The notes beneath the pieces are model-generated. The model was not told the origin of the DNA. It saw only the letters and a list, made by a program, of their open reading frames with translations, and did no database searches. The position numbers and the translations under genes are program-made. A DNA stretch of 64,000 nt from positions 700,005-764,004 of the forward strand of contig JABTUE010000003.1 of NCBI GenBank assembly GCA_015075515.1. Reading direction: 5' to 3'. Origin of the DNA: Planctomycetota bacterium. GTDB lineage: Bacteria; Planctomycetota; UBA8742; UBA2392. Positions within the stretch are counted from its first letter, which is position 1. Each line of letters opens with the position of its first letter. Positions 2-19,764 of this stretch are shown piece after piece.

Positions 2-223
2 TCGAACCTGATGGCCCTGGACGCGACCTGTTTCGGCAACTGGGGCTGCGCGCCACGCCACTACCCGGAAGTGATCCGGATGGTTCTGGACGGGCGCATC
101 AACCTGAAACCCTTCATCCAGACGCACCCGCTTTCCCGGATCCAGCCGCTGTTCGAACAGGCCCACCACGGGGGTCTGCCACAACGCGCGATTCTGGTGC
201 CGCAACCCCAGGAGCAACCATGA
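2..223 (+). CDS. had: C-terminal fragment of a zinc-type alcohol dehydrogenase, probably 6-hydroxycyclohex-1-ene-1-carbonyl-CoA dehydrogenase (gene runs off the 5' edge)
   Basis: The in-frame ORF is open to the window edge. Its tail (...VLDGRINLKPFIQTHPLSRIQPLFEQAHHG...) looks like an MDR-family dehydrogenase C-terminus. The stop overlaps the next start (ATGA at 220-223). The context next to oah/dch/bcr supports the call. Confidence 0.5.
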   Translation, partial: SNLMALDATCFGNWGCAPRHYPEVIRMVLDGRINLKPFIQTHPLSRIQPLFEQAHHGGLPQRAILVPQPQEQP

Positions 224-4560: not shown

Positions 4561-4561
4561 C

Positions 4562-5869
4562 ATGGACTGCTTTGTCGGCATTGACCTGGGCAGCACCACC
4601 ACCAAGGCCGTGATCGTGGACACCCGCGGCCGCATCGTGGGCCGGGGCATCACCAACAGCCGCAGCAACTACGACGTCGCGGCCCAGGTTGCCCGCAACG
4701 AGGCCTTCACCAACGCGCGTTTTGACATGCTGGGCCGGGCGTTGCGCGAAGAAGGCGGCCTTGGCGACGCGGGCCCGGCCTTTGAGGCGGCGCTTGCCGC
4801 GGCCTATCGCCACGAGTGTTTTCTGGGCCAGTTGCAGCGGCTGGAAAACCACTGCCGGCGCGACCTGGAAAGCGACCGCTACACACACGACCGGCGCGCC
4901 ATGGGGCACGCGCTGGAAGTGATTCTGGCCGGCATCCGCCACGATGCCGCGGCGGTGTACGGCGGCGGCACAGCCGCGAGGTCTGACTTTTTCCGCGACC
5001 TGGCCGGCGCCAGCTATACCGAACACGCTGCGCACGTGGCGCGCGAGGGCGGCCCGGCCTTTGACCGGCTGGTTGGCCTGTTTGACCGCAACATCATTCC
5101 GGTTGAGAACGAACCGGAAACGCGCGGCTTTGCCCAACTGTTGCGATCCGCGCTGGATCGCGTGCCGCTGTCTCTGGCGCAGCGGCGTGACGCCGTGGCC
5201 GGGCTTCTGGCCCGCGTGGCCGAAGCCGACCTGCGCGAGGTCAGCGCCGTGGGCACGGGCTATGGCCGCGTGCGCCTGCCGTTTCCGAAAGAAAACATCC
5301 GCAGCGAAATTCTGTGCCACGGCCTGGGCGCGCACCTGATGTTTCCGCGCACGCGCACGGTGCTGGACATCGGCGGCCAGGACACCAAGGCAATCCAGGT
5401 GGACGAACACGGCGTGGTCACCAGTTTTCAGATGAATGACCGCTGCGCCGCGGGCTGTGGCCGTTACCTGGGTTACATCGCCGACGAGATGAACATCGGC
5501 CTGCACGAGCTTGGGCCCCTGGCGCTGGGCGCGCGCCGGCGCATCAAAATCAACAGCACCTGCACGGTGTTCGCCGGAGCCGAGTTCCGCGACCGGCTGG
5601 CCGCGGGCCAGGCGCGCGAGGACATCGTGGCCGGTCTGCACCGGGCGATCATCCTGCGCGCCATGAGCCTGCTGGCGCGCAGCGGCGGCATCCGCAACGA
5701 GTTCACCTTCACCGGCGGAGTCGGCCGAAACCAGGCCGCGGTCAAGGCGCTGCACGAAGTCGCGCAGGACAACTACGGTTCGCTGACGATCAACATCGCG
5801 CCCGACAGCATCTACACCGGCGCGATCGGCGCGGCAACGTTTGCGCTGCAGGGGTCGGCGCGAAACTAG
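4562..5869 (+). CDS. bcrA: benzoyl-CoA reductase subunit A (BadF/BadG/BcrA/BcrD-type ATPase)
   Basis: The start MDCFVGIDLGSTTTKAVIVD lies just after the bcrB stop. It has an acetate/sugar-kinase-like ATPase fold (DIGGQDTKAIQ) and is about 435 aa, as expected for the alpha subunit. The ORF-track start at 4457 lies inside bcrB. Confidence 0.85.
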   Translation: MDCFVGIDLGSTTTKAVIVDTRGRIVGRGITNSRSNYDVAAQVARNEAFTNARFDMLGRALREEGGLGDAGPAFEAALAAAYRHECFLGQLQRLENHCRRDLESDRYTHDRRAMGHALEVILAGIRHDAAAVYGGGTAARSDFFRDLAGASYTEHAAHVAREGGPAFDRLVGLFDRNIIPVENEPETRGFAQLLRSALDRVPLSLAQRRDAVAGLLARVAEADLREVSAVGTGYGRVRLPFPKENIRSEILCHGLGAHLMFPRTRTVLDIGGQDTKAIQVDEHGVVTSFQMNDRCAAGCGRYLGYIADEMNIGLHELGPLALGARRRIKINSTCTVFAGAEFRDRLAAGQAREDIVAGLHRAIILRAMSLLARSGGIRNEFTFTGGVGRNQAAVKALHEVAQDNYGSLTINIAPDSIYTGAIGAATFALQGSARN

Positions 5870-5878
5870 GAGCAGATC

Positions 5879-6724
5879 ATGGCCATCACGGCAGGCATTG
5901 ATGTCGGCAGCGGCGCGGTCAAGGTTGCGGTCATGAACATGGACGACTGCCGCGAGCAACTGGCCGCGCATTACCTTGAACGCATACGGCGACGCGACGT
6001 CATGGAAGTGGTCGAAGAATCCCTGGCCGCGGCCCTGCGCGAGGCCGGGCTGCGTCGTGACCAGCTTGATTACATTGCCACCACCGGCGACGGCGACGTG
6101 ATCCCGTGGCGAACCGGACACTTCTACGGCATGACCACGCATTCACGCGGGGCACTGTTTCTGGCGCCAGAGGCACGCGCGGCCGTGGACATCGGAGCGC
6201 TGCACACCCGCGCCATGCGCTTTGACCCTTCCGGGCGCGTGCTGCAGTACCAGATGACCAGCCAGTGCGCGTCGGGCAGCGGGCAGTTTCTGGAGAACAT
6301 CAGCCGTTATCTGGGCATCAGCATTGACGAAATCGGCCCGCTGTCGCTTTCGGCCACCAACCCCGAAAAATGCAGCAGCATCTGCGCCGTGCTGGCGGAA
6401 ACCGACGTGATCAACATGGTCAGCCGCGGCATCAGCACCCCCGACATCCTGCGCGGTATTCACAACAGCATGGCGCTGCGTGTGGCGGGTCTGCTGCGTG
6501 CGATCAAGGTTGAGGGCACGATTCTGCTGACCGGCGGCCTGGCTCGTGACACCGGTCTTGCGGCCGCGATTGCCGACAAGCTGAAAGAAGGCGGCGGCGC
6601 CAATGTATCGCTGGCCACGCACGAACTTTCCGTGCAGGCCGGCGCGATCGGTGCCGCCATCTGGGGCGCGTTCCGGCACCACAAACTGGCCAGACAACAG
6701 GAGGCCGCCCGTGGCGGCACATGA
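5879..6724 (+). CDS. bcrD: benzoyl-CoA reductase subunit D (BadF/BadG/BcrA/BcrD-type ATPase)
   Basis: 281 aa. Motifs MAITAGIDVGSGAVKVAV and DIGALHTRAM. It is a paralog of bcrA with the size of the delta subunit. Confidence 0.85.
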   Translation: MAITAGIDVGSGAVKVAVMNMDDCREQLAAHYLERIRRRDVMEVVEESLAAALREAGLRRDQLDYIATTGDGDVIPWRTGHFYGMTTHSRGALFLAPEARAAVDIGALHTRAMRFDPSGRVLQYQMTSQCASGSGQFLENISRYLGISIDEIGPLSLSATNPEKCSSICAVLAETDVINMVSRGISTPDILRGIHNSMALRVAGLLRAIKVEGTILLTGGLARDTGLAAAIADKLKEGGGANVSLATHELSVQAGAIGAAIWGAFRHHKLARQQEAARGGT

Positions 6725-7457: not shown

Positions 7458-8138
7458 TTGACCGCACCAACGCAAGAACTGGACGCGCGCCAGCTGCCTG
7501 AGCCGCAACGTCCCGCGGCGGTTCTGGGCCAGCTGGCGCGGCTTGAAACGGGCCAGGAACTGGTGCTGGTGACACCGCACGACCCGCGCCCGCTGCTGCG
7601 CCGGCTGCTGGCCGAACTGCCCGACCGCCTGGACTGGGGGCCGCTGCGGCGCGGGCCGGAACTCTGGCGCTGGCAGTTTGCCGCGCGACCGCCGGAGCCC
7701 CGCACCGTGGCGGGCTATCTGGTCTGGGATCACCGCCGCATGGAAACACTGCTGCATCAGGGCACCACCGCCGCGGCCGCCGGCCAATGGCGCGAGGCCG
7801 GCCCGCGCCTTGAAGAATACGGCGTGGCGCTGCTGCGCCATGCCGACATTGAGGACGACATTCTGTTTCCGGTCTACGAGAAGCTGGGTGGTGGTCTGGC
7901 CGACAGTCCGACGGCCATGATGCGCGGCGAACACACCCAGGTCCGGCTGGCCGTGCATGATCTGCTGGCGGCGGCACGGCGCACCGACGCGCCGGGTGTT
8001 TTGGCCGCGCTGGGGCGCCTTCAGGCCGTGGTGGTGGAACACCACGTCAAGGAAGAAGAAATCCTGTTTCCTTCTCTGGACGACGCGCTTGAGCCGCCGG
8101 CACGACGGGCGCTGGTGGAACAACTGCTGCTGGCATGA
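7458..8138 (+). CDS. DUF2249-like N-terminal domain fused to a hemerythrin-like (HHE cation-binding) domain
   Basis: TTG start after AGGAG. N-terminal half: LDARQLPEPQRP...GQELVLVTPHDPRPLL. C-terminal half has His/Glu-rich helices (WDHRRME..., HADIEDDILFP, MMRGEHTQV, EHHVKEEEILFP). Confidence 0.65.
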   Translation: MTAPTQELDARQLPEPQRPAAVLGQLARLETGQELVLVTPHDPRPLLRRLLAELPDRLDWGPLRRGPELWRWQFAARPPEPRTVAGYLVWDHRRMETLLHQGTTAAAAGQWREAGPRLEEYGVALLRHADIEDDILFPVYEKLGGGLADSPTAMMRGEHTQVRLAVHDLLAAARRTDAPGVLAALGRLQAVVVEHHVKEEEILFPSLDDALEPPARRALVEQLLLA

Positions 8139-8148
8139 AAGGCAGGTC

Positions 8149-8832
8149 ATGACCGTAAAAACCGAAACTCTGGACGCCCGCGCCATCAACCTGGACGAAG
8201 CAAGGACACTGGTGCTGCGGCGCCTGGAGCGCCTGAAGCCGGGCCAGGCGCTGGACATTCTGACCGCGAACGAGCCGGCACCGATTCTGCGCGCGGCACT
8301 GGCCGAGTTTCCGCTGGCGTTTGACTTTTCGCCCCTGCGCGCCAGTCCGGGACAGTGGCGCTATCACATTTTCCGGCGCGACACCCGGCCCCAGCGCACG
8401 GTCACCGATTACCTGGCCTGGGATCACGACCGGCTGGATGCGCTTCTGGAATCCAGCCTGGATCACGCCCGACGCCAGGACTGGGCGGGGGCCCAGGCCC
8501 TGGCTGAAGACTTCGAACACGGTTTGAACCGCCACATTGAGATCGAAGAAGGCATCCTGTTTCCGGCCTTTGAACGCGCCACAGGACTGTTCGCCGACGG
8601 CCCGACCCAGGTCATGCGCCACGAACACGTGGACATCCGGCAATTTGTGACCGGTCTGGTGGACGCCGCGCGCCGGCGCGATTACGACGGCATGGAGCGC
8701 CACCGGGCGGACCTGCTGGGTGTGCTGGTGCCCCACAACATGAAAGAAGAGTCGGTGCTGTACCCCACCACCGACCGTTTCCACCACGAGGCCGAACTCG
8801 AATCACTGGTGCTGCGGCTGATGCTGGGCTGA
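8149..8832 (+). CDS. DUF2249-like + hemerythrin-like protein, tandem paralog
   Basis: The architecture and motifs match the preceding gene (LDARAINLDE..., WDHDRLD, HIEIEEGILFP, MRHEHVDI, PHNMKEESVLYP). The ATG at 8149 lies 11 nt after the upstream stop. Confidence 0.65.
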   Translation: MTVKTETLDARAINLDEARTLVLRRLERLKPGQALDILTANEPAPILRAALAEFPLAFDFSPLRASPGQWRYHIFRRDTRPQRTVTDYLAWDHDRLDALLESSLDHARRQDWAGAQALAEDFEHGLNRHIEIEEGILFPAFERATGLFADGPTQVMRHEHVDIRQFVTGLVDAARRRDYDGMERHRADLLGVLVPHNMKEESVLYPTTDRFHHEAELESLVLRLMLG

Positions 8833-9435
8833 TACCGACGGCACCACCTCAAACAACCTCGGGCCGGCCTCAATCACCGCGGCCACGCGCTCGGCCCAGG
8901 CCTGTCGAAACACGGCCAGCGCGCGGGGGTCACCCGCCAGCGCCGGCCGCAGGTTTTCAGAAATCACCGGCTGTTCCGGCAGCACGCCGGCACGCGTCAC
9001 CAGACACACACTCGCGCGCGTGTCAGAGCGCCACAGGGTAACGGCGCCAAAGGGCGCGGCCTCGGGTTCATACCGCAGCAGCCCCGCGCGCGCGAAGCGG
9101 CCGGCCAGTCCGCGAAACCCGTCATTGCCCGCCGCGCCGGTAATGTAGCCGACAATCCGCCCGACCGGGCCGCTGGCGAATACGTCAGGCGCCGAGTGAA
9201 CCTTGACCGACACATCGCCGCGCACCGGCAGTTGATCCCCGTACAGGCGCTTCAGGCCCTCGCGCGCCAGTTCAAATGCCGTGGCCACCGTCGGGCACAG
9301 GTGCCCGGCGTAGCGGCCGGCATCCTCCAGCGTGAACTCCATGCGGCCATCGGCCTTGAACCCCAGCAGTTCCGCCAGCGGATCACGCAGCACAATCGGC
9401 GCGCAGGCAGCGGCAATTTCTTCAAGCCTTGTCAT
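8803..9435 (-). CDS. FmdE-like domain protein (uncertain)
   Basis: About 210 aa with a GHLCPTVA motif reminiscent of the FmdE family HxCPG. AGGAGG lies 9 nt upstream of the ATG at 9435. The start overlaps the stop of the nnrS-like gene. Confidence 0.45.
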   Translation of the reverse strand: MTRLEEIAAACAPIVLRDPLAELLGFKADGRMEFTLEDAGRYAGHLCPTVATAFELAREGLKRLYGDQLPVRGDVSVKVHSAPDVFASGPVGRIVGYITGAAGNDGFRGLAGRFARAGLLRYEPEAAPFGAVTLWRSDTRASVCLVTRAGVLPEQPVISENLRPALAGDPRALAVFRQAWAERVAAVIEAGPRLFEVVPSVSAQHQPQHQ

Positions 9436-11419
9436 GGGCAATCGCCTCCTGTAGCTGCTTCATCACGTCCTCCAGCGCGTAGCCGTTGTGCGACGCCGCG
9501 CGCGCCACGCTTTCTTCGCCGCCGCAGCAGGCATCCAGCCCCAGGCGCGAAAACACCGGCACCGTGCGCGGATACGCCCGGGCCACGTCGGCCACCGACC
9601 GTCCCGGGTCAATCGCCGCAACCGGCGCGACGGGCGGGGGCGACGGTGGCGCGGCTCCTGTGGCGCGGCGCAGATCCGCCAGCAGCGCGTCCAGGTTCAC
9701 ACCCTTGAGCGCGCAGGCCTGCTCCAGACTGACCGCGCGCGCCAGAGTGTTGCGCGCTACCGGGTTCTTCAGCAGCCCGAACCCGTGCCAGGCAAACACC
9801 TCGATCGTGTGAGGCCAGCGCGCCAGAATCGCCGCCACGTTGGCCCGGGCGTTCAGTTCCGTGGCCGGGGCGATGACATCGGCAGGCCGCGCGCGGATCA
9901 GCAGCCCGCCGATGTGCGCCCCCCACAGCAGCAGCGCCAGCGCCGCCAGCGCCGAACCCGCACCCAGCACAACGAACGCGGCGGTGTGGTAATCCAGGGC
10001 GGTCTCACCCGCCAGGCGCAACGCCACCGCCAGGTTCAGCAGCCACAGCACAGCGCGCTTGCGGCCCAGCATGGCCGGGTTGATGCCGCGCAGCGTGGGC
10101 ACAACCTTGAGCGACACGGCCACGATCATCTGGGCAATGAACCCCAGTGTCAGGGTGTGGCGCACCGCGCCGTGATAGCCGTGGCCGAAATACCCCAGCA
10201 GCGAAATGTACACCGGCTCCAGCAGCCACAGCACCAGCGCGACCGCCAGCCACCCGTGCGCGGCGCGCACGAACGGAATGCTGCGGTCGCGCCCCGCGGG
10301 CGTGCGCCAGGGGCGAAAACCCGTCAGGACGCCAAGCACTGAAACCGCAAACACCAGCAGAGCCAGCCAGTACATCGTCTGAAGGGTCGCAACGCTCAGG
10401 GGTGCGGCAGCCAGACCGCGCTTGGCCGCCATGGACCAGCCAAACCCGGTAACCATGACCGCCAAGCCCAGGTTCAACGGCCAGAACCAGAACTTCATGG
10501 CGCGCTGGCCCGGATCGGCAAAACCGAACACCGGCGGCAAAAACCTTTGCATCACGCCCAGAATCAGGATCGTCGCTCCGCCCAGCAGTTGCACCATGCG
10601 CAAGGGCTCCTGCAGCGCCGCAATGCGCGGAATCAGTGTGCCAAAGCCGTCGGCTGTGGTGATGGCCGCCAGATGCACCCCCGCGGCCAGCGACCCCAGC
10701 ACGAGCCACCCCGCCGCGGCAAACACATAGCGGTCATAGGCCGCCCATCCGGCCCCCGCCACGGCGCAGGTGCGCCACAGGATCAGCGCGAACAGGGCCA
10801 GCGCCACGGTTTCCAGCCCGCTGCCGGCAAGGGCCAGCGCCAGCCACGGACCACCGAATGAAAACACCGGACCGGACATGTCCAGCGCCAGCATCTCGCC
10901 GGCCACGCGCGCGGACACACCCAGCGCCATCAGCACAAACGAAAACAGCGCCAGTTTCGGCCGCCACAACGAGGCGTGCTTGAAGCGCGGCAGGGCCTGG
11001 TAGCCGAAACCCATGATGAACATGCCCGCAAACCCGGCCACCATCGCGTGGGCGTGGGCGTTGATCAGGTTGATCGGCGGCGACACCAGGCTGCCCCCGG
11101 CCCAGGCCCGCCCCATCACATACAGACCCAGAATCACACCCGGCACCAGCGCAAAGGCCAGTCCGCCCAGAAAGAACGGGCGGTACAACGCGTCGGTCAG
11201 GCCGGGTGCGGAAGGCGCTGGCGGGGCTTTGGCGGGCGCGGCGTTCAGCTCCCGCAGCAGGCGGTCGAGTTCCACACCGTGGGCGGCCGCAAAGAACGCC
11301 AGGGTTTCATCGGGCCCGGTCGCGCCGCCGCACCCGCGCAGTCCGTACCGATCCAGCACAGGTCTCAGGTGCGGTGCCCTGGCCAGCAGGCGGGGGATGG
11401 TTTCCTCGGGGTGGATCAT
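9422..11419 (-). CDS. NnrS-family polytopic membrane protein fused to three DUF1858/ScdA_N-type soluble domains
   Basis: 665 aa. The N-terminal roughly 60 aa (IPRLLARAPHLRPVLDRYGLRGCGG...) form one soluble module. A long multi-TM core rich in conserved His follows. Two C-terminal modules complete the protein, and the last one (VADVARAYPRTVPVFSRLGLDACCGGEESVARAA) closely resembles the YtfE/ScdA N-terminus. Confidence 0.7.
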   Translation of the reverse strand: MIHPEETIPRLLARAPHLRPVLDRYGLRGCGGATGPDETLAFFAAAHGVELDRLLRELNAAPAKAPPAPSAPGLTDALYRPFFLGGLAFALVPGVILGLYVMGRAWAGGSLVSPPINLINAHAHAMVAGFAGMFIMGFGYQALPRFKHASLWRPKLALFSFVLMALGVSARVAGEMLALDMSGPVFSFGGPWLALALAGSGLETVALALFALILWRTCAVAGAGWAAYDRYVFAAAGWLVLGSLAAGVHLAAITTADGFGTLIPRIAALQEPLRMVQLLGGATILILGVMQRFLPPVFGFADPGQRAMKFWFWPLNLGLAVMVTGFGWSMAAKRGLAAAPLSVATLQTMYWLALLVFAVSVLGVLTGFRPWRTPAGRDRSIPFVRAAHGWLAVALVLWLLEPVYISLLGYFGHGYHGAVRHTLTLGFIAQMIVAVSLKVVPTLRGINPAMLGRKRAVLWLLNLAVALRLAGETALDYHTAAFVVLGAGSALAALALLLWGAHIGGLLIRARPADVIAPATELNARANVAAILARWPHTIEVFAWHGFGLLKNPVARNTLARAVSLEQACALKGVNLDALLADLRRATGAAPPSPPPVAPVAAIDPGRSVADVARAYPRTVPVFSRLGLDACCGGEESVARAASHNGYALEDVMKQLQEAIAHDKA

Positions 11420-11468
11420 GGCCGCCTCCCTATATCAATATAACGCGACCTGATTATCTCTTTATTCC

Positions 11469-13214
11469 TCACAGCGCGCCAGCGCATTCCACAAACCGGC
11501 ATCGCGCCGGCACCGGGCCGCCCTGTACGGTCCCCGGATCAAAGTTGGCCTCGTAGAATGTGGGCGGTTCAAGTGTCATGCCGTGCGCCAGCCGGCGGGC
11601 TTCGGCCCGCATGCGCCACAGCACATAGCGCCCCCCCAGCGCCGCAGCCAGGCGCGCCTTCAGGCCGAACTCGGCATACAGCCGCCCCAGCAGTTGCCCC
11701 AGCCGCCCGTAGTGAGGTGTCGCGCGCCCCAGCCAGTTCCTGGCGGCAGCCACCACGGCAGCAAAGGTGGTAGGCAGTTCGCGGCCCTCCCAGCGCACGC
11801 GGTCGCGCACGCGCGGGTCGGGGTGGTTCTTGTGACGCAGCCAGCCCTTGAGCGTGGTCTCGATGATGCGCACGACACTGGGGCCATTGACTTCAAAATC
11901 GCGCCGAAACGCCGCCAGAAGCAGCGCGGTCTCTTCGCCGTCGCGCAGATGCGGGTGCCGGTAGTTGAAGCGCTCCTGGCCATGAATCTTCGGCAGCCCG
12001 ACCTCGGATTCGGCCAGAATCCGGCCCTGGGCCGCCAACTCGCGGTGCAGTTGCGTGCCGGGCAGGGGCGTATACAGCATGAACTGGTGAAAATCCGTGG
12101 CGTGCGCCACGGCGTAGTCAATCGCCTCGTGGATGTTGTCCCGGGTGTGGGACTCAAGGCCGATGATGGTGCTGCCCAGCACGCGAATGCCGTTTTCCTG
12201 AAACTTGTGAACCATGGCGCGGGTGTCGGCACCGGCCAGCTTGCCGTAACGGCTGTCTTTGCCCTCAAGGCCCAGCCACACCCACGACACACCCAGCCTC
12301 AGCAGTTCGTCCATCGAATAACGGCGCAGCACATTGGCCGAGCTGAACAGGTACAGCGCCCAGGGTTTGCGCGCGGCCTCCATGCGGCTTAGCAGCGCCA
12401 GGGCCCGGCGCCGGTCCAGCAGGAAGTTTTCGTCCATCACAAAGAACGACCGCGCCCCGGTCTCGCGCTCCAGCCCGCACAGAATCTCGAACAGTTCGTC
12501 GCCCGAGGCATAGAAGACACTGGAGCGCCCCTTGCCGCCAAACATGGCCGACGTCGAGCAGAAATTGCACCCGATCGGACACCCCACCGAGGGAATCACC
12601 GTGGCTGCCGTTTCGCCCGGCCGGTTGGGCACCGCAACGCCCATGCTGCGCATGTTCACCGGCGACAGCACCACCGGGTGCCGGATCGGCGCGCCGGTGT
12701 CTTCGCCCAGATAGGCGCGGAACCAGGCCACACCCTCGCCGCGCACGATATGGTCGGCGTCAACACGGGCATGCAGGTCGTCCAGATTGGCGATGTGGCC
12801 CCCGATCACGATCTTGGCATGGGGCTGGTACCGCCGGATCAGTTCGCACATGTGCTTTACCTTCAGCACGTTGACGATGATGCTGCTGATGCCGATCACG
12901 TCGTAGGCGCGCGATTTCAGTTCGAGCACAAACCGTTCCAGCGTGGGAAAGTCCAGCACCGTGCATGGCGCCGAAATGTTGCACTGGATCAGCATGATGC
13001 CCCAACTGCGGTGGAACATGCGCAGGGAAAACGGCCCCTGCACCCGCGTGACCTGGTTGTGGTACAGCTCCATCGGGTTGATCACGCTGCCGCCGAATTC
13101 GTCATCGCGGGCATAGGGCCCGAACACGCTGCACAGAAGCACGCGGGCGCGCGTGCCACGGGGGTGAAGTGGCGGCGCGGGAACAGCCTTGGCCGGAACG
13201 GTGGTCTGCAACAT
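11469..13214 (-). CDS. B12-binding-domain radical SAM protein (class B)
   Basis: 581 aa with an N-terminal cobalamin-binding-like domain. The radical SAM cluster motif is CPIGCNFCS, and the C-terminal extension is long. Confidence 0.85.
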   Translation of the reverse strand: MLQTTVPAKAVPAPPLHPRGTRARVLLCSVFGPYARDDEFGGSVINPMELYHNQVTRVQGPFSLRMFHRSWGIMLIQCNISAPCTVLDFPTLERFVLELKSRAYDVIGISSIIVNVLKVKHMCELIRRYQPHAKIVIGGHIANLDDLHARVDADHIVRGEGVAWFRAYLGEDTGAPIRHPVVLSPVNMRSMGVAVPNRPGETAATVIPSVGCPIGCNFCSTSAMFGGKGRSSVFYASGDELFEILCGLERETGARSFFVMDENFLLDRRRALALLSRMEAARKPWALYLFSSANVLRRYSMDELLRLGVSWVWLGLEGKDSRYGKLAGADTRAMVHKFQENGIRVLGSTIIGLESHTRDNIHEAIDYAVAHATDFHQFMLYTPLPGTQLHRELAAQGRILAESEVGLPKIHGQERFNYRHPHLRDGEETALLLAAFRRDFEVNGPSVVRIIETTLKGWLRHKNHPDPRVRDRVRWEGRELPTTFAAVVAAARNWLGRATPHYGRLGQLLGRLYAEFGLKARLAAALGGRYVLWRMRAEARRLAHGMTLEPPTFYEANFDPGTVQGGPVPARCRFVECAGAL

Positions 13215-13303
13215 GGCAGGGAACCCCGGTGGAAGGAAAGGAAGGTATATAGGCTATCCTGGTCCTGTTATCCATATGTCAGACGCAAAAGATACGGCCC
13301 GGC

Positions 13304-13492
13304 CTACAAAACCTTGCGCCCACGAAGATCTTTCCACACCCGGTACGCGTACCCCGCGCCCGCGATCACAAAAAGCGGCTGGGCCAGAAACACGAACGCG
13401 GCCATCGCGTAAGGCCCCGGATCCACGGCGTACAGTGCTGTGATCAAAAACGCCACTGCGGCAGCCAGGGCTGGAAGACGCACCGAGTTCAT
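13304..13492 (-). CDS. small (62 aa) two-helix membrane protein, possibly NapE-like
   Basis: The ATG overlaps the stop of the cytochrome gene (ATGA). The protein is hydrophobic (LPALAAAVAFLITALYAV, AAFVFLAQPLFVIAGAGYAYRVW). Its tail resembles the GGYGFxVW end of NapE as I recall it. The ORF-track version of 122 aa is over-extended. Confidence 0.45.
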   Translation of the reverse strand: MNSVRLPALAAAVAFLITALYAVDPGPYAMAAFVFLAQPLFVIAGAGYAYRVWKDLRGRKVL

Positions 13493-14169
13493 CGTTTTTC
13501 TCCCGTCAGCCGGCCGTAATCCGCGTGGCCGGGCGTGCGCTGGTCGCGCGTCGGGTGCGCGCGGCCGTGGCAGTTCAGGCAGCTCAGGCTGCTGTCGGCC
13601 AGCCGCGCGCGAACCGTTACATGTGACGGCACGGCCACAAAACGCGGCGTGCCTTCGTGGCACTTCAAGCAATTGTCGTTGTGGAACACACCGCGAAACT
13701 TGATTGGCTCGGTGAATGTGCCGGTGGTGTACCGCGCCAGGTGCCGGTAGCCCTCCATCTTGGCGCGCAGGTCACCCGCCAGGCCGTAATCAGAGTGGCA
13801 CACAAAGCACTGGTCCTTGGCGATCCAGCCGTTGCGAAAGTGGCGCGCCGCCAGCGTCTGGCTTGACGCGTCGCGCATGTCCGTGACCATCGGCGTCATC
13901 ACGTGGCAGCGGTTGCAGGCCTCTACGCCGTGCACGCCCTCAACCGTGTGATAGTTCGCCACCGCCACCGTGGCCGCAGGCACGGCAAACAACGCCGCCA
14001 GCGCCAGCAGCTTGAAAAACGCCACGCCCGAAACCGTCGCCACTCCCAGCGAAACCTTGCGTTCGGGGTCAATCCGGCCGAAGTTCACCCGCGCCACCCA
14101 CACACACAGCAACGCGCCCAGAACACTGAGCACGCCGGTCAGGACACGAAACACATCGGCTGTTTCCAT
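13489..14169 (-). CDS. membrane-anchored tetraheme cytochrome c (NapC/NirT/NrfH-like)
   Basis: Four CxxCH motifs (CNRCH, CFVCH, CLKCH, CLNCH) follow two N-terminal hydrophobic helices. GGAG lies 7 nt before the ATG. Confidence 0.85.
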   Translation of the reverse strand: METADVFRVLTGVLSVLGALLCVWVARVNFGRIDPERKVSLGVATVSGVAFFKLLALAALFAVPAATVAVANYHTVEGVHGVEACNRCHVMTPMVTDMRDASSQTLAARHFRNGWIAKDQCFVCHSDYGLAGDLRAKMEGYRHLARYTTGTFTEPIKFRGVFHNDNCLKCHEGTPRFVAVPSHVTVRARLADSSLSCLNCHGRAHPTRDQRTPGHADYGRLTGEKR

Positions 14170-14181
14170 CCGTCGCTCCGG

Positions 14182-16479
14182 CTAGTCCCGAATCTTGCGG
14201 AACTGCACCGCCGTCAGCTTGAACTCAGGCTCTTTCGAAACCGGATCCACGTGGTCGGCCACCACCCGGTTCACCAGCAGTCTTGCGTCATAAAACGCGG
14301 CAAACACCAGCCCCGGCCGCAGGTCCGGGTCTGTCACGGCCCGGCCCCGCACAGAACCAAAGCGACTGGAAAACTCGACCATGTCGCCCGAACTCACGCC
14401 GCGAGCGGCAGCATCAGCCGGGCTGACCATAAAACGCGCGGGGCCGGCCGCACCGCCAAGTTCGGCGATCCGCCCGGTCATGGTGCCGGTGTGCCACTGT
14501 TCCAGCACGCGCCCAGTGGTCAGGTACAGGGGGTAGTCTTCACCCGGCTGTTCGGGCGACGGCACATAGGGACACAGCGTGATCACGGCGCGTTTGTCCT
14601 TCTGGCCGTAAAACTCGATACCCGCGCCCTTGCTGACAAACGGGTCGTCGCCTTCCACATACCGCCGCACGGTGCCGGGGTGGTCTTCGGTCGGACACGG
14701 CCACTGCAGACCCGGCAGCGCGCGCAGCCGTTCGTAGGTCATGCCCTCAAAGTTGTAAACGCTGTGCGCGCTCATGTGCCGCCATTCGTCCCACACCTCC
14801 TGCGGCGTGCGCGCCTTGATCAGTTGGCCAAGCCCCAGCCTTTCCGCAAGCTGGGTCAGTATCCACAGATCCGGTCTGGCCTCACCGGGCGGGTCAATCA
14901 GCTTGTCCACAAGCTGGTAGCGGCGCTCGCCCTGGCCCAGCACACCCTGCTTTTCACACCACAGGGCCGCCGGCAGAAGCACGGACGCGGTCTTTGCCGT
15001 TTCACTGTCGGCCACGATCTCGCTGACCACGGTAAAAGCCTTGTCCATGGCCGCCGCGTAGCGATCGCAATCGGGCATGGACTGGGCGGGGTTGGTGCAC
15101 AGGATCAGCGCGCCCTTGACCCTGCCGTCCTCAAGGGCGCGGAACAACTCCACGGCGTGATAGCCGGGCCGCGGCGAGATCGTCCCTTCCGGCACGCCCC
15201 ACAGTTTTTCGACCTCGCGGCGGTGAGCTTCGTTGGTCACCTGGCGACCACCCGGCAGGGCATGCGCCAGCGCGCCGGTATCGCGCACGCCGCCGCAGGC
15301 ATTGGGCTGGCCGGTAATACTGAAGGGGGTGGCGCCGGGCCGCCCGATCTGGCCGGTCAGCAGGTGCAGGGCATTGAGCATGATGTTCAGCGCCGTGCCC
15401 TGGGTGCGCTGGTTGGCACCCATCGTCCACAGCGACATCGCCGCCCCCGCCCGGGCAAACCGGTGCGCTACATGCCGGATCACATCCGCACCGATACCGA
15501 GGCGCCCGGCCACGGCCGGGGGTGTGTAGTCGGCCAGAAACGCCGCGAACTCGTCAAAGCCCACCGTGTGGCCGTCACGCGCAAAGCGCACATGACGATC
15601 CACAAAGGCCCGGTTCACCAGACCGTCTTCCACCATCACGCGGGCCATGGCATTGAGCAGCAGCAGGTCCGTGCCCGGAACTACCGGCAAATGCAGGTCG
15701 CAGCGTTTTGCCGTGGGGCTAAGGCGTGGGTCCACACAGATCGTGTACACGCGCGGGTCGGCCGCGCGACGGCGCTGGATGCGCTCCCACAACGGCGGGT
15801 GGCATTCATAGGGATTGGCCCCGAACAGCAGCAGCACATCGGCATGGTCAATGTCCTCGTAACTGCCGGGTGGTTCGTCCTTGCCGTACACCGACACGTA
15901 CCCGGCCGCCGCCGAGGCCATGCACAGGCGCGGGTTGCCGTCCACGTTGTTGGTGCGCAGGCCGGCCTTAAACAGCTTGTTGGCTGTGTACGATTCTTCG
16001 GTGAACAACTGGCCGCTGCCGTAGAACGCCAGTGCGTCGGGACCGTGGGCGTCACGGATTTCCCCAAAGCGCGCGGCCACCAGATCCAGCGCCTCGTCCC
16101 AGCCAGCCTCGACCAGTTTGCCGCCCTTGCGGATCATGGGCCGCGTCAGCCGGCCCTCAATGCGCGGCAGTTCGCGCAGCATGGAACCCTTGACGCAGAT
16201 GACGCCGCGGTTGTGGCCGGATTCGTGGCCGCGGATGTCTACAATCTGGCCGTCGCGCAGACCCACGCGGATCGTGCAGCCGGTGCCGCAAAAACGGCAG
16301 ACTGACTTGTGCCACTGATCGGCGGTGCCGGGCGGCACCATCAGTTCCAGCGCGCCCCAACCCGCAAGACCGGCGCCAACGGCGGCACCAACGCCGCCCA
16401 AAACCCAGAGAAACTCCCGGCGGTAGGGATTGGCGGGCGCGTCCTGGGGCGGCAGTACGGGTTGTTCCCGGTCCGTCAT
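14182..16479 (-). CDS. Tat-exported molybdopterin oxidoreductase, nitrate reductase catalytic subunit-like (NapA/Nas family)
   Basis: Twin-arginine signal (YRREFLWVLGGVGAAVGAG). N-terminal 4Fe-4S motif CRFCGTGC...CVKG. Mo-ligand region NPRLCMASAAAGY. The start is taken at MTDREQ (16479). Confidence 0.8.
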   Translation of the reverse strand: MTDREQPVLPPQDAPANPYRREFLWVLGGVGAAVGAGLAGWGALELMVPPGTADQWHKSVCRFCGTGCTIRVGLRDGQIVDIRGHESGHNRGVICVKGSMLRELPRIEGRLTRPMIRKGGKLVEAGWDEALDLVAARFGEIRDAHGPDALAFYGSGQLFTEESYTANKLFKAGLRTNNVDGNPRLCMASAAAGYVSVYGKDEPPGSYEDIDHADVLLLFGANPYECHPPLWERIQRRRAADPRVYTICVDPRLSPTAKRCDLHLPVVPGTDLLLLNAMARVMVEDGLVNRAFVDRHVRFARDGHTVGFDEFAAFLADYTPPAVAGRLGIGADVIRHVAHRFARAGAAMSLWTMGANQRTQGTALNIMLNALHLLTGQIGRPGATPFSITGQPNACGGVRDTGALAHALPGGRQVTNEAHRREVEKLWGVPEGTISPRPGYHAVELFRALEDGRVKGALILCTNPAQSMPDCDRYAAAMDKAFTVVSEIVADSETAKTASVLLPAALWCEKQGVLGQGERRYQLVDKLIDPPGEARPDLWILTQLAERLGLGQLIKARTPQEVWDEWRHMSAHSVYNFEGMTYERLRALPGLQWPCPTEDHPGTVRRYVEGDDPFVSKGAGIEFYGQKDKRAVITLCPYVPSPEQPGEDYPLYLTTGRVLEQWHTGTMTGRIAELGGAAGPARFMVSPADAAARGVSSGDMVEFSSRFGSVRGRAVTDPDLRPGLVFAAFYDARLLVNRVVADHVDPVSKEPEFKLTAVQFRKIRD

Positions 16480-16519
16480 GACCGGGAGCGTATCAATCAC
16501 GCCGTGAAATTTAAGCTGA

Positions 16520-16560
16520 CAGGCCGGCGGGCCGAGAAATGTCTCAGCCCGCACGGCCTG
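16520..16560 (-). terminator. stem-loop immediately after the Cys-rich gene, upstream of the napA-like gene (attenuator or partial terminator)
   Basis: CAGGCCG (16520-16526) pairs with CGGCCTG (16554-16560), and an inner GGGC pairs with GCCC. On the minus strand an A/T-rich tract (TCAGCTTAAATTTCAC) follows. Confidence 0.35.
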
Positions 16561-16565
16561 CGGCG

Positions 16566-17054
16566 TTATTTGCAGCCTTCACAGCCAAGGCACAGACTGC
16601 CGCCCTTGCAGCCATCGCAGCCTTCGCAGTAGTCGGCGCCCTTGCAACCCTGGCAGCCCTCGCAGTAGTCGCAGCCCTGGCAGCCTTCACAGTCTTCGCA
16701 GTAATCACAGCCCTTGCAGTTGATGCAGACCTTGACCACCTTGCCGTCGGCGGTCTTTTCCTCGATCACGCTGTCGCAGCCTTTGCAGTTGACGCAGTTG
16801 CGGCACTTCTTGCAGCCCTTGCACCCCACGCACTTGGCGCACTTGTCGCAACCCTTGCAGTTGACGGCCTTGGCGCATTTGTCGCAGCCCTTGCAGTCCA
16901 GGCACTTGTCACACTTGTCGCAGCCCTTGCAGTTTTCGCATTTGGCCATTTTGGCTGCCGGGGCCTTTTCGGCCTGGGCGCGGGCTGTTTCCGACCCACC
17001 GGGCAAGCCGCAAAGTCCTGCCGTACACAGCAGCACCATAATCCACATACGCAT
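16566..17054 (-). CDS. secreted cysteine-repeat protein, (C-x-x)n, about 34 Cys in about 125 mature residues
   Basis: The ATG at 17054 is preceded by GGAGGA. Signal peptide: MRMWIMVLLCTAGLCGLPGGSETARAQA. Uninterrupted runs then follow, such as CENCKGCDKCDKCLDCKGCDKC, CKGCDKCAKCVGCKGCKKCRNCVNCKGC and CINCKGCDYCEDCEGCQGCDYCEGCQGC. I recognise no family. Confidence 0.7.
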   Translation of the reverse strand: MRMWIMVLLCTAGLCGLPGGSETARAQAEKAPAAKMAKCENCKGCDKCDKCLDCKGCDKCAKAVNCKGCDKCAKCVGCKGCKKCRNCVNCKGCDSVIEEKTADGKVVKVCINCKGCDYCEDCEGCQGCDYCEGCQGCKGADYCEGCDGCKGGSLCLGCEGCK

Positions 17055-17172
17055 GACGGTTCCTCCGTACTTTGCCGCACCATTCAGCCCAGTAACGGCA
17101 GCATAGCAGCCGGATTCAGCCGCACCAGCATATTCTGGATAACTATATCTATTTACCTTGGAACTCTGTCCG

Positions 17173-17778
17173 TCAGGCTGAAGGAAACCCCGGGTCCTGG
17201 CGCAGACGTTCAATCTGATCCAGGTGCCGGTGGGTGTGGAGCGCGTGGATCTCAAAGGCCTGGGCCAGGCTCACGCGAATCAGCGCCGACACCGGCGTGC
17301 CGAACACAACCGACCCCAGCGGCAGACCGCGCGACAGACGTAACAGATTGCTCAGGTTGGACAGTTCCGTACCCAGTCGGTACCGCACGTCGGCCAGAAC
17401 CAGCCGGCTTGCCGACGGCCGGAACACCCGCGGAGCCGGAACCCGCGCCGCGGGCCCCTTGCGCAGCGTGCGGATGATGTAGCGCCCCACCCATGTGCCA
17501 CGGGCCCACGGGAGAGCACCCGACAAGCCGCGCGCGCGGGCGCGCTCAATCGCGCGGCCGATGCAGCGCGCGTAGGTGCCAATGGACTGGTTCAGGTGAT
17601 CCACACACTCGGCCACCGACCACTTGTCGGGCGCGGGCTTCCAGTTGGCCTGGGCGTCGGAAAGCCCGCCAGTAAGCTGATCCAGCCGATGCCGCGCACG
17701 GTCGTATTCCGCCTGCCAGACCTGAGTGTCTTCGGCGGCTGCGGGCGGCGTGGATTCGCCGGCGGTTTGCGTGTTCAT
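17173..17778 (-). CDS. DinB-superfamily (DinB_2-like) metal-dependent protein
   Basis: 201 aa with four-helix-bundle style motifs (WSVAECVDHL, FEIHALHTHRHLDQI). The start is ATGA-coupled to the marR stop. Confidence 0.7.
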   Translation of the reverse strand: MNTQTAGESTPPAAAEDTQVWQAEYDRARHRLDQLTGGLSDAQANWKPAPDKWSVAECVDHLNQSIGTYARCIGRAIERARARGLSGALPWARGTWVGRYIIRTLRKGPAARVPAPRVFRPSASRLVLADVRYRLGTELSNLSNLLRLSRGLPLGSVVFGTPVSALIRVSLAQAFEIHALHTHRHLDQIERLRQDPGFPSA

Positions 17779-18357: not shown

Positions 18358-19617
18358 CTACTTCTTGATCTTGGGCCGTGCCGGCTTGGTCGAAATCACT
18401 TCCGTCGTTGACAGCCGCTGCCACTCGTCCTCAGGCTTGTCGCGCCAGTACTGCTCGGTCCGCACCGGAAAACAGTCGGGCTGCGTTGTGGCAATCCAGG
18501 TGACGGTTCGCAGATACTGGCCCGGCTGGCCGCGCTCGAACGTGATCATCGAACAGATGAACTCGCCTGCCGGCGTGGTCAGCTTCTGGTCGTGCTTTTG
18601 CTCCACCACGCGGCCCGGCAGTCTCAGGTTGGCAAACTTCACCGGCTCGTCGGCGCCGCGCGCGGATGATTCCTCGGGCTGCAGGTGCGTCTGCCGCGCG
18701 ATGTACTCAAGACCGGTCATCACACCTATTTCGTTGAGTTCGTCGTCATAAAAATTCACCACCACGCTCGCCCGGCCATAACGTTTGGAAACTGAACTGA
18801 CGCGCCAGCGCCCGTACTGCACGCGGCCATCGGCGAAATTTTCCTTGATCCACCAGACCTGGCCGGCCTTGAGTTCAAACTTCACCTTGTCCGCTGCGGT
18901 CGCGGCGGTCTTGCCCCCGCCTTTGTCGGCGCCCGGCTCGGCCTTGAGCCGTTCCAGTTCGCGGCGGGCGAGGTCTTTGTAGGCCGTGACAAACACGGCT
19001 TCGTCGGCACGGCAGCGGCGTTCTTCTTCGGCGGCATCGTCTCCGGCGGGCGCCTGGCCCTGCAGCGCCGACTGGCATTCAGTCCATTCGTCCACGCAAC
19101 GGGCAACCTCACCGGTGCCGAACAGGGCCGTCAGTTCCTTGCGATCCAGCCGGCCGTCTTTGTTTGTGTCAAAGGCCCACAACACCAGTCGCCAGGCCTG
19201 GCGGGCGGCAAAGTCCATGTCCGGTTCGCGTTCCAGCGGGTTGCGCGCGGCGTCCACCAGCGCGCCAAGCTCGCCGCGTGACAACACCCCGTCATCGTCG
19301 CTGTCGGCCAGAGCGAAATCAGCCGTTGAGGCGAACTCCTCCACGGGGTGATAACGCAGGTTATGGGTGTTCAGGGCCTCGGCCTGTTTGTCGCCCTCGG
19401 GCATGGCCTCGATCGCCCGCAGTTCGGTCAGGGCGCGCAGGCGCAGATCGTGCATTTCCTGCGTGCTGATGCGGCCGTCCTTGTCGGCGTCGGCCAGCTT
19501 GAGAGCCTCGGCCGCGTACTTTTCGCGGCTTTCCTTCAGCAGTGCCGAATCATCCGCCAGGGCATACCCGGCGCACAGGGCCAGAACAGCAACGGCCGGA
19601 GCAAGTCGTGTCTTCAT
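18358..19617 (-). CDS. secreted EF-hand calcium-binding protein with an unknown C-terminal domain
   Basis: Signal peptide MKTRLAPAVAVLALCAGYALA. Three canonical EF loops (DADKDGRISTQE, DSDDDGVLSRGE, DTNKDGRLDRKE). AAGGAG precedes the ATG at 19617. Confidence 0.75.
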   Translation of the reverse strand: MKTRLAPAVAVLALCAGYALADDSALLKESREKYAAEALKLADADKDGRISTQEMHDLRLRALTELRAIEAMPEGDKQAEALNTHNLRYHPVEEFASTADFALADSDDDGVLSRGELGALVDAARNPLEREPDMDFAARQAWRLVLWAFDTNKDGRLDRKELTALFGTGEVARCVDEWTECQSALQGQAPAGDDAAEEERRCRADEAVFVTAYKDLARRELERLKAEPGADKGGGKTAATAADKVKFELKAGQVWWIKENFADGRVQYGRWRVSSVSKRYGRASVVVNFYDDELNEIGVMTGLEYIARQTHLQPEESSARGADEPVKFANLRLPGRVVEQKHDQKLTTPAGEFICSMITFERGQPGQYLRTVTWIATTQPDCFPVRTEQYWRDKPEDEWQRLSTTEVISTKPARPKIKK

Positions 19618-19764
19618 GACGATTCTCCTTAGGCGGCATGATTGCAATAGCGCAAAGGCTGCACCACCATGACATCTGGCTTGCATCGCGTATGCGCACA
19701 ACCGCCGCGACCCTGCGCGGCACCGCAACCGGCGCTAGACTCCCGCCCGCACACGGAGGCAAAC

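Follow-up and report, generated by a model that had tools for sequence, protein, structure and literature searches.

Within a 64,000-nucleotide stretch of DNA from a Planctomycetota bacterium (GenBank assembly GCA_015075515.1, contig JABTUE010000003.1, positions 700,005 to 764,004 of the forward strand; from here on, the window), one gene encodes a small protein built almost entirely of C-x-x triplets, which is here called the Cys-triplet protein. Judged from its sequence, it is an orphan that is exported, strictly periodic and strongly constrained, and it is tied to the metabolism of nitrate and nitric oxide (NO) both by its position and by a putative operator shared with genes of that metabolism. 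We favour, as a possibility and not yet as a probability, its reading as a thiolate buffer of the periplasm that resembles a metallothionein and would take up soft metals or nitrosative species. If the protein were such a thiolate sponge working alongside nitrate respiration, it would be a new player in shielding the periplasmic molybdenum and Fe-S enzymes of anaerobes from copper, cadmium and NO-derived species. To our knowledge, no metallothionein-like bacterial protein exported to the periplasm has been described, and we know of no structurally characterised protein with a cysteine at every third residue over two 55-residue stretches.

Gene layout, reading frame and orthologs

The Cys-triplet gene occupies 16566..17054 on the minus strand and specifies 162 amino acids plus a stop codon (ATG at 17052-17054, TAA at 16566-16568), a call that is supported by its translation, by its occurrence on 13 public contigs and by a set of four orthologs. 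The first 28 residues (16971..17054, minus strand) have the n-, h- and c-region anatomy of a Sec-type signal peptide, MRMWIMVLLCTAGLCGLPGGSETARAQA, with a basic n-region, a hydrophobic core (Kyte-Doolittle 9-mer means of 1.8-2.4) and an AxA site, cleavage being predicted at AQA|EKAP, and they lack a twin-arginine (RR) motif. The mature chain would have 134 residues and a mass of 14.0 kDa. Behind a 10-residue head, EKAPAAKMAK, it consists of two arrays and a linker: the N-array (16770..16940, minus strand) comprises 19 C-x-x triplets with 18 cysteines, is Lys-rich and carries a net charge of +7; the linker, VIEEKTADGKVVKV (16728..16769, minus strand), is free of cysteine, 14 residues long, conserved in length and predicted from AlphaFold strands to form a beta-hairpin; and the C-array (16569..16727, minus strand) comprises 18 triplets with 16 cysteines, is rich in Asp, Glu, Tyr and Gly and carries a net charge of -6.

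All 34 cysteines of the mature chain (25% of its residues) stand in phase 0 of their array, none falling in the other two phases, and the triplets without one are AVN in the N-array and ADY and GSL in the C-array. The mature protein is otherwise rich in Lys, Asp, Glu and Gly, with three Tyr, one Pro and no His, Phe or Trp; the arrays have almost no aliphatic residues, and the motifs CAKC, CKGC and CKKC occur in them. Tandem Repeats Finder resolves the DNA into periods of 9, 36 and 72 nt (36 and 72 nt in the N-array, 36 nt in the C-array), the 36-nt period being a super-repeat of four triplets, or 12 residues, that shows as CKG at N-array triplets 2, 6, 10, 14 and 18 and as 'DY' at C-array triplets 3, 7 and 11. 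An earlier note on this DNA, made from its letters alone, had described a C-x-x protein with a Sec signal, about 34 cysteines and a basic half followed by an acidic one, all of which the translation bears out. Its statement that the protein has neither CxxCH nor the ferredoxin spacing CxxCxxCxxxCP and resembles no family likewise agrees with a motif check, which found both patterns absent, and with Pfam and NCBIfam scans, which returned no match even at E <= 10.

The same note had warned that the 9-nt periodicity opens spurious open reading frames (ORFs) in several frames on both strands, and such ORFs do lie over the gene, at 16539-17477 (+; 312 amino acids, antisense to the Cys-triplet gene and to the DinB-family gene beside it), 16714-17106 (+) and 16766-17083 (-). 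A further ORF of 800 amino acids (13903-16305, +) is antisense to the molybdoenzyme gene napA that follows downstream. Long antisense frames of this kind result from high GC content together with the 9-nt repeat and can easily mislead gene callers.

The frame that selection has kept can be told from orthologs, which were recovered solely by scanning genomes with DNA patterns back-translated from peptides of the protein. The set comprises the window and the metagenome-assembled genomes (MAGs) ACE_PLA32, ACE_PLA33 and SRR6227243_bin.55 (below, PLA32, PLA33 and bin55), all four from Planctomycetota, with identities to the window protein of 79%, 66% and 58%, respectively. Additionally, 13 public contigs from several sequencing runs carry a call of this exact protein, one of these contigs belonging to the Planctomycetota MAG GCA_023384155.1, and the gene together with 300 nt of upstream sequence is identical across six independent assemblies. 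Among the orthologs the coding region aligns and the flanking DNA does not; the third codon position of the C-x-x frame takes 36-51 of the 61-92 substitutions between them, and the ratio of nonsynonymous to synonymous substitution rates (dN/dS) for the mature part is 0.14-0.17. Because of this third-position bias and the low dN/dS, the C-x-x frame is the one under selection, and the Cys-triplet ORF is, on this comparison, a real gene under purifying selection and of fixed length. The signal peptide evolves faster, with a dN/dS of at least 0.57 where calculable, as is usual in secreted proteins; its sequence has diverged among the orthologs, yet it remains hydrophobic, ends in an AxA-type site and lacks RR in all four.

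The architecture is conserved with equal strictness. All four orthologs have 19 plus 18 triplets and a 14-residue linker, which contains an A[DN]G turn; the arrays are free of insertions and deletions, differences in length being confined to the region before the arrays and to the extreme C-terminus. Two concerns of the earlier note are thereby settled in favour of the gene, as it had named loss of the C-x-x phase in homologs, or conservation of an alternative frame, as grounds for rejecting it. By contrast, its suggestion that the repeat is prone to expansion or contraction is contradicted by the identical triplet counts of the four orthologs and by the identity of the DNA in the six assemblies. 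Cysteine totals are 34, 34, 34 and 36, always even despite seven variable cysteine positions, which points weakly (roughly p = 0.1) to a constraint on pairing.

So far, the orthologous family proper comprises these four planctomycete genomes. A phmmer search of an index of 5.8 billion proteins gave no match to the protein, and the matches of a profile search and of a full scan of 1.84 billion representatives were all to other CxxC-array proteins, with no ortholog among them; in none of these arrays is the layout of signal peptide, basic array, linker and acidic array found. An alignment-based scan of metagenomes confirmed no homolog. Among the matches listed for a generic (C-x-x)7-C DNA pattern, simple 9-nt repeats such as (CKG)n dominated, and those listed for the pattern CKGC..C..C..CKGC on metagenomes were likewise mostly simple 9-nt repeats. 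Standard homology searches missed the orthologs because of the composition of the protein, which triggers the bias and composition filters of HMMER, and searches based on hidden Markov models can be expected to overlook Cys-array proteins for this reason.

A shared inverted repeat and the nitrate/NO setting

On the minus strand, the window has a MarR gene, a DinB-family gene, the Cys-triplet gene and then a nitrate/NO cluster, which opens with a NapA-like molybdoenzyme directly downstream of the Cys-triplet gene (no convincing, strong terminator was found between the two) and includes genes for a B12-binding radical SAM (rSAM) protein and for a fusion of NnrS, DUF1858 and ScdA domains. An inverted repeat, GGTAA-N10-TTATC (17138..17157; consensus GATAA-N10-TTATC), lies 103 nt 5′ of the Cys-gene ATG and is a candidate operator. 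A second copy (11439..11458) stands 20 nt upstream of the NnrS-DUF1858-ScdA fusion gene, and a third, weaker one with two mismatches (13253..13272) precedes the rSAM gene by about 40 nt. In all four orthologs, which represent two genomic contexts, GATAA-N10-TTATC occurs with 0-1 mismatch 95-112 nt upstream of the start, and their upstream regions are otherwise unalignable, apart from GGTGCGG in the 5′ leader (17075..17081, minus strand), which the alignment shows to be invariant in the four.

The distribution of the repeat is narrow. The 64-kb window has two sites at <=1 mismatch, against 0.09 expected, and allowing <=2 mismatches adds only the one before the rSAM gene, although such statistics are soft for a motif that was obtained post hoc from four sequences. 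In the 16-kb PLA32 locus, sites at <=2 mismatches occur only at the corresponding three promoter regions (on contig L207 at 7893 before the Cys gene, at 11837 before the rSAM gene, and at 13647, the orthologous NnrS-fusion site). Three further Planctomycetota loci, L009-L011, contain one match (L009, 4062), one match (L010, 4167) and two matches (L011, 4095 and 10793), which fall in NnrS/rSAM-napA control regions or before an rSAM paralog. Since the motif thus recurs at nitrate/NO promoters in five genomes, the Cys gene would belong to a nitrate/NO regulon even where it has been relocated, and the pattern suggests that it is co-regulated with genes of nitrate respiration and NO stress. A candidate nitrate/NO regulon, with its operator, is in this way brought to light in the poorly studied Planctomycetota.

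The inverted repeat may be the operator of an undescribed regulator. Its likeness to a Fur box fails on spacing, N10 against what we take to be N9 or N3 in such boxes. No match was found to the published consensus sequences of NsrR, HcpR, DNR, NnrR and NorR (PMC1274295). As to other signals, a ribosome-binding site, GGAGGA, can be read from the sequence 6 nt 5′ of the ATG (17061..17066, minus strand), and the 118-nt gap 5′ of the gene has 52% GC, compared with 64.5% for the window; the good ribosome-binding site and the separate A/T-rich promoter gap of the earlier note therefore stand, and the upstream control region is conserved. A promoter scan did not find a sigma-70 consensus, and a reading of the leader as a sigma-54 -24/-12 promoter was dropped, as inspection of the alignment by eye showed it to fit the window and PLA32 only. 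No Rfam family or riboswitch was found for the gene, and the structure of its leader is not unusually stable (z = -0.16).

Linkage to napA is real, but it is not obligatory. In PLA32 the Cys gene is again directly upstream of napA, with different upstream neighbours (a lipid desaturase and RimK). In PLA33 and bin55 it lies on a different contig from napA, between a divergent enzyme of the xanthine dehydrogenase (XDH) family and a Mg-chelatase-like AAA+ ATPase (498 amino acids, starting 58 nt downstream of the Cys gene in PLA33, contig L208); the XDH-family enzyme most resembles 4-hydroxybenzoyl-CoA reductase alpha and is accompanied by a 2Fe-2S subunit and two uncharacterised ORFs. In L009-L011, whose napA loci are 77-79% identical, the rSAM gene and not the Cys gene stands in front of napA. 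From the arrangements in L009-L011, PLA33 and bin55 it follows that the rSAM gene travels with napA and not with the Cys gene. Of the claims made earlier about this neighbourhood, the position directly upstream of a molybdoenzyme is true of the window and of PLA32, but as a functional link it extends to only two of four genomes; the position between a marR-dinB pair and napA is correct for the window, but that pair is not kept even in PLA32; and the conserved linkage to nap or other molybdoenzyme genes that the note proposed to look for amounts to napA in two genomes and the XDH-family enzyme in the other two.

Predicted structure and possible functions

With almost no hydrophobic residues, one Pro and three Tyr, the fold must be organised by its cysteines, as disulfides or as metal-thiolate centres. 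Two AlphaFold models agree with this but conflict in topology. AlphaFold2 run on the single mature sequence predicts a long beta-hairpin in which, on either side of the linker, the last part of the basic array pairs with the first part of the acidic one, with a predicted local confidence (pLDDT) of 80-93 at mature residues 41-100 and <50 elsewhere. A second model, built on a pseudo-alignment of 43 non-orthologous array proteins and therefore treated as a hypothesis, has one beta-bridge per triplet along both arrays (pLDDT 84-90 in the N-array, 57-68 in the C-array) and resembles a beta-solenoid with 12-residue coils. Both models are free of helix, place the cysteines in the core and have strands at mature residues 69-72 and 78-81, the linker hairpin. 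Foldseek found no significant match in the PDB for either model; the folds nearest to the pseudo-alignment model were pentapeptide-repeat proteins, designed solenoids and tailspikes (E >= 0.1, TM score <= 0.29). Among viral predicted structures, the same model matched a CxxC protein of ChoanoV1 (BFVD A0A5B8IEK9; E = 1e-7, TM score 0.50) and a protein of a Campylobacter phage. An antiparallel ladder of Cys-Cys pairs was also considered, and no registry is claimed, as one pair fits the compensated cysteine changes and others do not; the fitting pair joins unit 9 of the N-array and unit 11 of the C-array, both Cys-less in the window and PLA32 and both Cys in bin55.

Taken together, a rod of tripeptide repeats around a cysteine core, either a mini beta-solenoid of 4 x 3 residues or a zipped hairpin, would be an undescribed architecture. 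In its full form this proposal, which we regard as conceivable but doubtful, includes a continuous inner column of some 34 thiolates or disulfides, through which a line of metal ions might run, basic and acidic halves, a periplasmic setting in a nitrate/NO regulon and an undescribed regulator acting at GATAA-N10-TTATC. If a disulfide- or metal-cored mini-solenoid were real, it would be a new minimal fold common to uncurated viral and bacterial CxxC arrays, of interest for protein design and for metal-wire chemistry, and a Cys-core rod would turn the lattice seen in hundreds of uncharacterised proteins from phages, giant viruses, Bacteroidota and Legionellales-like bacteria into a large fold class that has so far gone unrecognised.

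According to the thiolate-buffer reading that we tentatively favour, the protein would be exported unfolded through Sec and loaded with metal in the periplasm; while the cell respires nitrate under anoxia, its overlapping CxxC pairs would act as chelators of Cu(I), Zn, Cd, Fe or nitrosyl-iron species. The capacity would be roughly 8-9 tetrathiolate sites, or more Cu(I), and the thiols might also absorb nitrosative or oxidative equivalents by turning into S-nitrosothiols or disulfides, so that this thiolate sink would protect periplasmic NapA and the co-regulated NO-handling machinery. Several considerations argue for it: the composition is metallothionein-like; the setting is anoxic, with nitrate respiration and oxygen-sensitive genes of the CoA-dehydratase/reductase type nearby; the gene is apparently co-regulated with NO-handling proteins and surrounded by NapA, an NrfH-like cytochrome, NnrS, a RIC/ScdA-like domain and hemerythrin-DUF2249 proteins; and both genomic contexts adjoin metalloenzyme clusters. 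Additionally, a signal peptide is missing from the majority of proteins that have this lattice; these are presumably cytoplasmic, and there the lattice would be organised by metal, as disulfides are not expected to form in the cytoplasm. We infer all of the elements involved (periplasmic location, co-regulation, Cys-core fold, binding of metals or reactive nitrogen species, protective role) from sequence and prediction.

The closest comparison in composition is with metallothioneins (SmtA/BmtA, MymT and the vertebrate proteins), which are also small, contain ~25-30% Cys, are rich in Lys, Asp, Gly and Ala, have CxxC motifs such as CAKC and CKGC, and are made of two Cys-rich blocks and a short linker with no His-independent hydrophobic core; low mass, very high Cys content and few aromatic residues or His are all found in the Cys-triplet protein. 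It differs in being predicted to be Sec-exported, in having twice the usual size, C-x-x spacing only (no CxC or CC), a fixed 12-residue super-repeat and one strongly acidic half. The bacterial metallothioneins known to us to date are cytosolic. Searches of Pfam, NCBIfam and PDB sequences gave no metallothionein match. A precedent for an exported, Cys-lined metal store is Csp1, which keeps many soft metal ions in the periplasm, either in supply for metalloenzymes or away from them (PMC7558416), but Csp1 is a pre-folded four-helix bundle with 13 Cys that leaves the cytoplasm through Tat (PMC7558416), whereas the Cys-triplet protein would be Sec-exported and all-beta or irregular, with 34 Cys on a three-residue lattice. 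No similarity to Csp in sequence or fold was found. As the signal peptide is of Sec type without RR in all four orthologs, export with a pre-assembled cofactor is ruled out.

Some observations weigh against a thiolate buffer. The periplasm normally oxidises cysteines, and even Cys totals would be expected from full disulfide pairing and are not required by a metal cluster. The acidic C-array would repel anionic metal-thiolate clusters, and the pseudo-alignment model buries the cysteines in a predicted solenoid, like the disulfide-cored insect antifreeze protein. No gene for a metal transporter or metal sensor is adjacent to the Cys gene, the inverted repeat matches no known consensus of a metal or NO regulator, and the linkage to napA is found in only two of the four genomes.

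The main alternative, which is possible and which we hold to be somewhat doubtful, is that the protein is a rigid scaffold with a disulfide core. In this case, the Dsb machinery would pair all cysteines (17-18 disulfides) and lock the arrays into a stiff rod, either a beta-solenoid with 12-residue coils, as in the antifreeze protein of Tenebrio molitor (TmAFP), or a long cross-linked hairpin. Function would then reside on the surface, in a ladder of Lys on one half and of Asp, Glu and Tyr on the other, and the protein might be a structural component of the envelope, serve as an adaptor, or bind a partner that is periodic or charged, for instance a polymer, a mineral or another protein. Sec export would deliver it to an oxidising compartment, the Cys totals (34, 34, 34 and 36) are kept even by compensated gains and losses, and the exact conservation of repeat number fits a defined rigid body. 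On the other hand, the anoxic, nitrate-respiring setting, with oxygen-sensitive enzymes nearby, may leave periplasmic thiols reduced, and a purely structural role does not explain co-regulation with NO-stress genes. No partner or surface for such a rod can be identified.

Structural comparisons are similarly divided. The 12-residue super-repeat equals the coil length of the TmAFP beta-helix (1ezg), which is the only genuine sequence match in the PDB, albeit an insignificant one (phmmer E = 2.2), and TmAFP is also secreted and has a Cys-filled core. A protein of Vibrio phage 1.238.A (gp68, L337 2833-3207), 46% identical to the C-array, is annotated as 'insect antifreeze protein' through InterPro IPR016133. 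However, TmAFP has two Cys per coil and a Thr-Cys-Thr ice-binding face, whereas the Cys-triplet protein has four Cys per 12 residues, which as inward residues of a coil would be twice the number in TmAFP, and charged faces; of the TmAFP pattern TCTxSxxCxxAx, the TCT motif is absent. The beta-bridge per triplet that the pseudo-alignment model gives in both arrays, its beta-solenoid neighbours in the PDB (none significant) and its match to a giant-virus CxxC model (E = 1e-7, TM score 0.5) would favour a rod, but the alignment came from non-orthologous arrays and the other AlphaFold model contradicts it. Another nominal PDB match, 8zxl, is a collagen fibril and was rejected as an artefact of three-residue periodicity (full-sequence E 1e-6, domain score -100 bits, bias 115).

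A loose precedent for a scaffold is offered by the Cys-rich envelope proteins of Planctomycetes (YTV proteins, PMC8567305) and chlamydiae (OmcA/OmcB), members of the PVC group of bacteria, which are likewise exported and are thought to stiffen the envelope through disulfides. By contrast, the Cys-triplet protein is tiny, soluble-looking and Pro-poor, belongs to a putative nitrate/NO regulon, and in the Pfam scan showed no YTV or other envelope domain. A metal or thiol buffer, a metallothionein-like store and a disulfide-locked fibre had been named as plausible roles in the earlier note, and in the form of the thiolate buffer and the disulfide-cored scaffold they are the two leading hypotheses here. 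Alternatively, these might be two states of a single redox-active protein, the one reduced and the other oxidised.

A role bound to the neighbouring molybdoenzyme is improbable. As an accessory, the protein would buffer Cu, thiomolybdate or tungstate, which are poisonous to enzymes with a Mo cofactor, or act as a redox partner or maturation factor for NapA, and it is true that in both independent contexts the gene lies within a few genes of a molybdopterin enzyme (NapA or the XDH-family enzyme). However, there are just two such contexts; the XDH-family enzyme lacks an export signal and would stay in the cytoplasm, while the Cys protein is predicted to be exported; and the closely related napA operons of L009-L011 have no Cys-gene copy adjacent to them. 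In Pfam and NCBIfam scans, no match was found to nap accessory families (NapB/D/E/F/G/H/L/M), and the protein bears no likeness to the known accessories NapD/E/F/G/H/L/M.

We consider it very unlikely that the protein is a periplasmic electron wire, that is, a series of Fe-S centres, or of Fe(Cys)4 centres like that of rubredoxin, which would feed NapA with electrons in place of NapB. Its CxxC pairs do resemble rubredoxin-type knuckles, and the gene is immediately upstream of a NapA that lacks NapB, but a Sec signal is incompatible with export of assembled Fe-S clusters, the ferredoxin spacing CxxCxxCxxxCP is absent, an NrfH-like tetrahaem donor is already encoded beside napA, and the Cys gene is unlinked to napA in two genomes.

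Least of all can the protein be credited as a precursor of a ribosomally synthesised and post-translationally modified peptide, be it of the thiazole/oxazole type or a substrate of the B12 rSAM protein encoded three genes downstream: precursors of heterocycloanthracin and sonorensin (Haft 2009, PMC2674419) do have a long run of low complexity in which every third residue is Cys, are easily missed by homology tools and can be encoded far from their maturases, but they have a leader peptide and 50-90 residues, with Gly, Ser or Trp as X and tripeptide insertions or deletions between strains, the hallmark of that bacteriocin family, whereas the Cys-triplet protein has a classical Sec signal, a mature chain of 134 residues, charged X residues and an invariant triplet count. 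A scan of NCBIfam, a library that holds TIGR03601 (PMC2674419), returned no family at E <= 0.01, TIGR03601 included; YcaO, cyclodehydratase and dehydrogenase are absent among the called genes within ~10 kb and the scanned ORFs of the window, although maturases can be distant; and the link to the rSAM protein is rejected on synteny, as its gene stays with napA where the Cys gene is absent or elsewhere.

Other cysteine arrays and neighbouring genes

The sole profile match of the Cys-triplet protein is to phrog_15341, a family of phage CxxC arrays (E = 7.6e-11, 42.9 bits, residues 25-137); it is the repeat itself that produces this match, the flanking domains of the family have no counterpart in the Cys-triplet protein, and homology is uncertain. 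Although these viral proteins have the same uninterrupted C-x-x-C lattice, the phage and giant-virus arrays are without signal peptide or a basic and an acidic array and have conserved terminal domains of their own (e.g., 'YWxDxNGNxW' and 'GLVGxxN'). Uninterrupted viral CxxC arrays form a large uncurated class that no Pfam model covers, and their annotations vary between 'insect antifreeze protein', 'TNFR-Cys domain' and 'CaiB/BaiF family'.

Arrays with signal peptides also occur in bacteria. Muribaculaceae MAGs encode lipoprotein-like, Asn-rich C-x-x arrays with a signal peptide (L209 7866-8339 and L211 8013-8561, the former with a lipobox-like Cys), whose cap, 'D-x-(N/D)-G-N-[IV]-N-C', resembles the 'ADGKVVKVC' that leads into the second array of the window protein. 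Six metagenome contigs (L220, L242, L259, L277, L303 and L329) encode secreted (Cys-[Lys/Thr]-Gly)n proteins of ~80 amino acids with an MKKS..AYA|D signal; these contigs are low in GC, the gene adjoins a DUF6969 gene in L277 and L329, and a WipA-like phosphatase and a GspD secretin suggest that L329 is Legionellales-like.

The NapA-like molybdoenzyme downstream of the Cys-triplet gene (14182..16554, minus strand; likely ATG at 16479) is predicted to be exported through the twin-arginine (TAT) pathway (YRREFLWV) and resembles the monomeric type of NapA, with the Pfam domains Molybdop_Fe4S4, Molybdopterin and Molydop_binding; NapA models of NCBIfam score it at 604 bits, below their cut-off of 904, and its relatives are found in Planctomycetota, Bacteroidota, Myxococcota, Acidobacteriota and Deferribacterota. 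Instead of NapB/NapC, its partners are an NrfH/NapC-like membrane tetrahaem cytochrome c (13489..14169, minus strand; four CxxCH motifs; TIGR03153 NrfH, E = 5e-12, below its cut-off), which is its likely quinol dehydrogenase, and a 62-residue membrane peptide (13304-13492). The B12-binding rSAM protein follows (581 amino acids, 11469-13214, minus strand); its best matches (HpnJ, BchE and P-methyltransferases) are weak and all far below cut-off. In these Planctomycetota its gene always adjoins the pair of monomeric-type napA and nrfH-like genes (11895-13643 in L207), and a paralog is nearby in L009 and L011.

Next comes the 665-residue NnrS-DUF1858-ScdA_N fusion (9422-11419, minus strand), in which an N-terminal DUF1858, a redox disulfide domain associated with hybrid-cluster proteins, precedes the NnrS membrane domain, and a ScdA_N/RIC-like segment forms the C-terminal part. 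Behind the fusion gene lie the gene for a conserved 212-residue protein with no family match (8803-9441) and, on the strand opposite to the nitrate/NO cluster, those for two hemerythrin-DUF2249 proteins (7458-8138 and 7957-8832). From their domains, the fusion, the 212-residue protein and the hemerythrin-DUF2249 pair look like a compact NO-stress module.

Farther away, the region 220-6721 (+) encodes two enoyl-CoA hydratases, two proteins like the D-component of 2-hydroxyglutaryl-CoA dehydratase (HGD-D) and a BcrAD/BadFG-type ATPase, a cluster of the benzoyl-CoA-reductase or 2-hydroxyacyl-CoA-dehydratase type, from which strictly anaerobic radical chemistry in this bacterium is to be expected. 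On the other side, the MarR gene adjoins the gene for a secreted EF-hand protein (18358-19728, minus strand; an ORF of 456 amino acids, about 419 as called). A different EF-hand protein, a hydrolase, is encoded along with a ResA-like thioredoxin-fold protein near the Cys-gene loci of PLA33 (L208 3113-10037) and bin55 (L335 3810-10113), and the presence of EF-hand proteins in both contexts is probably a coincidence.

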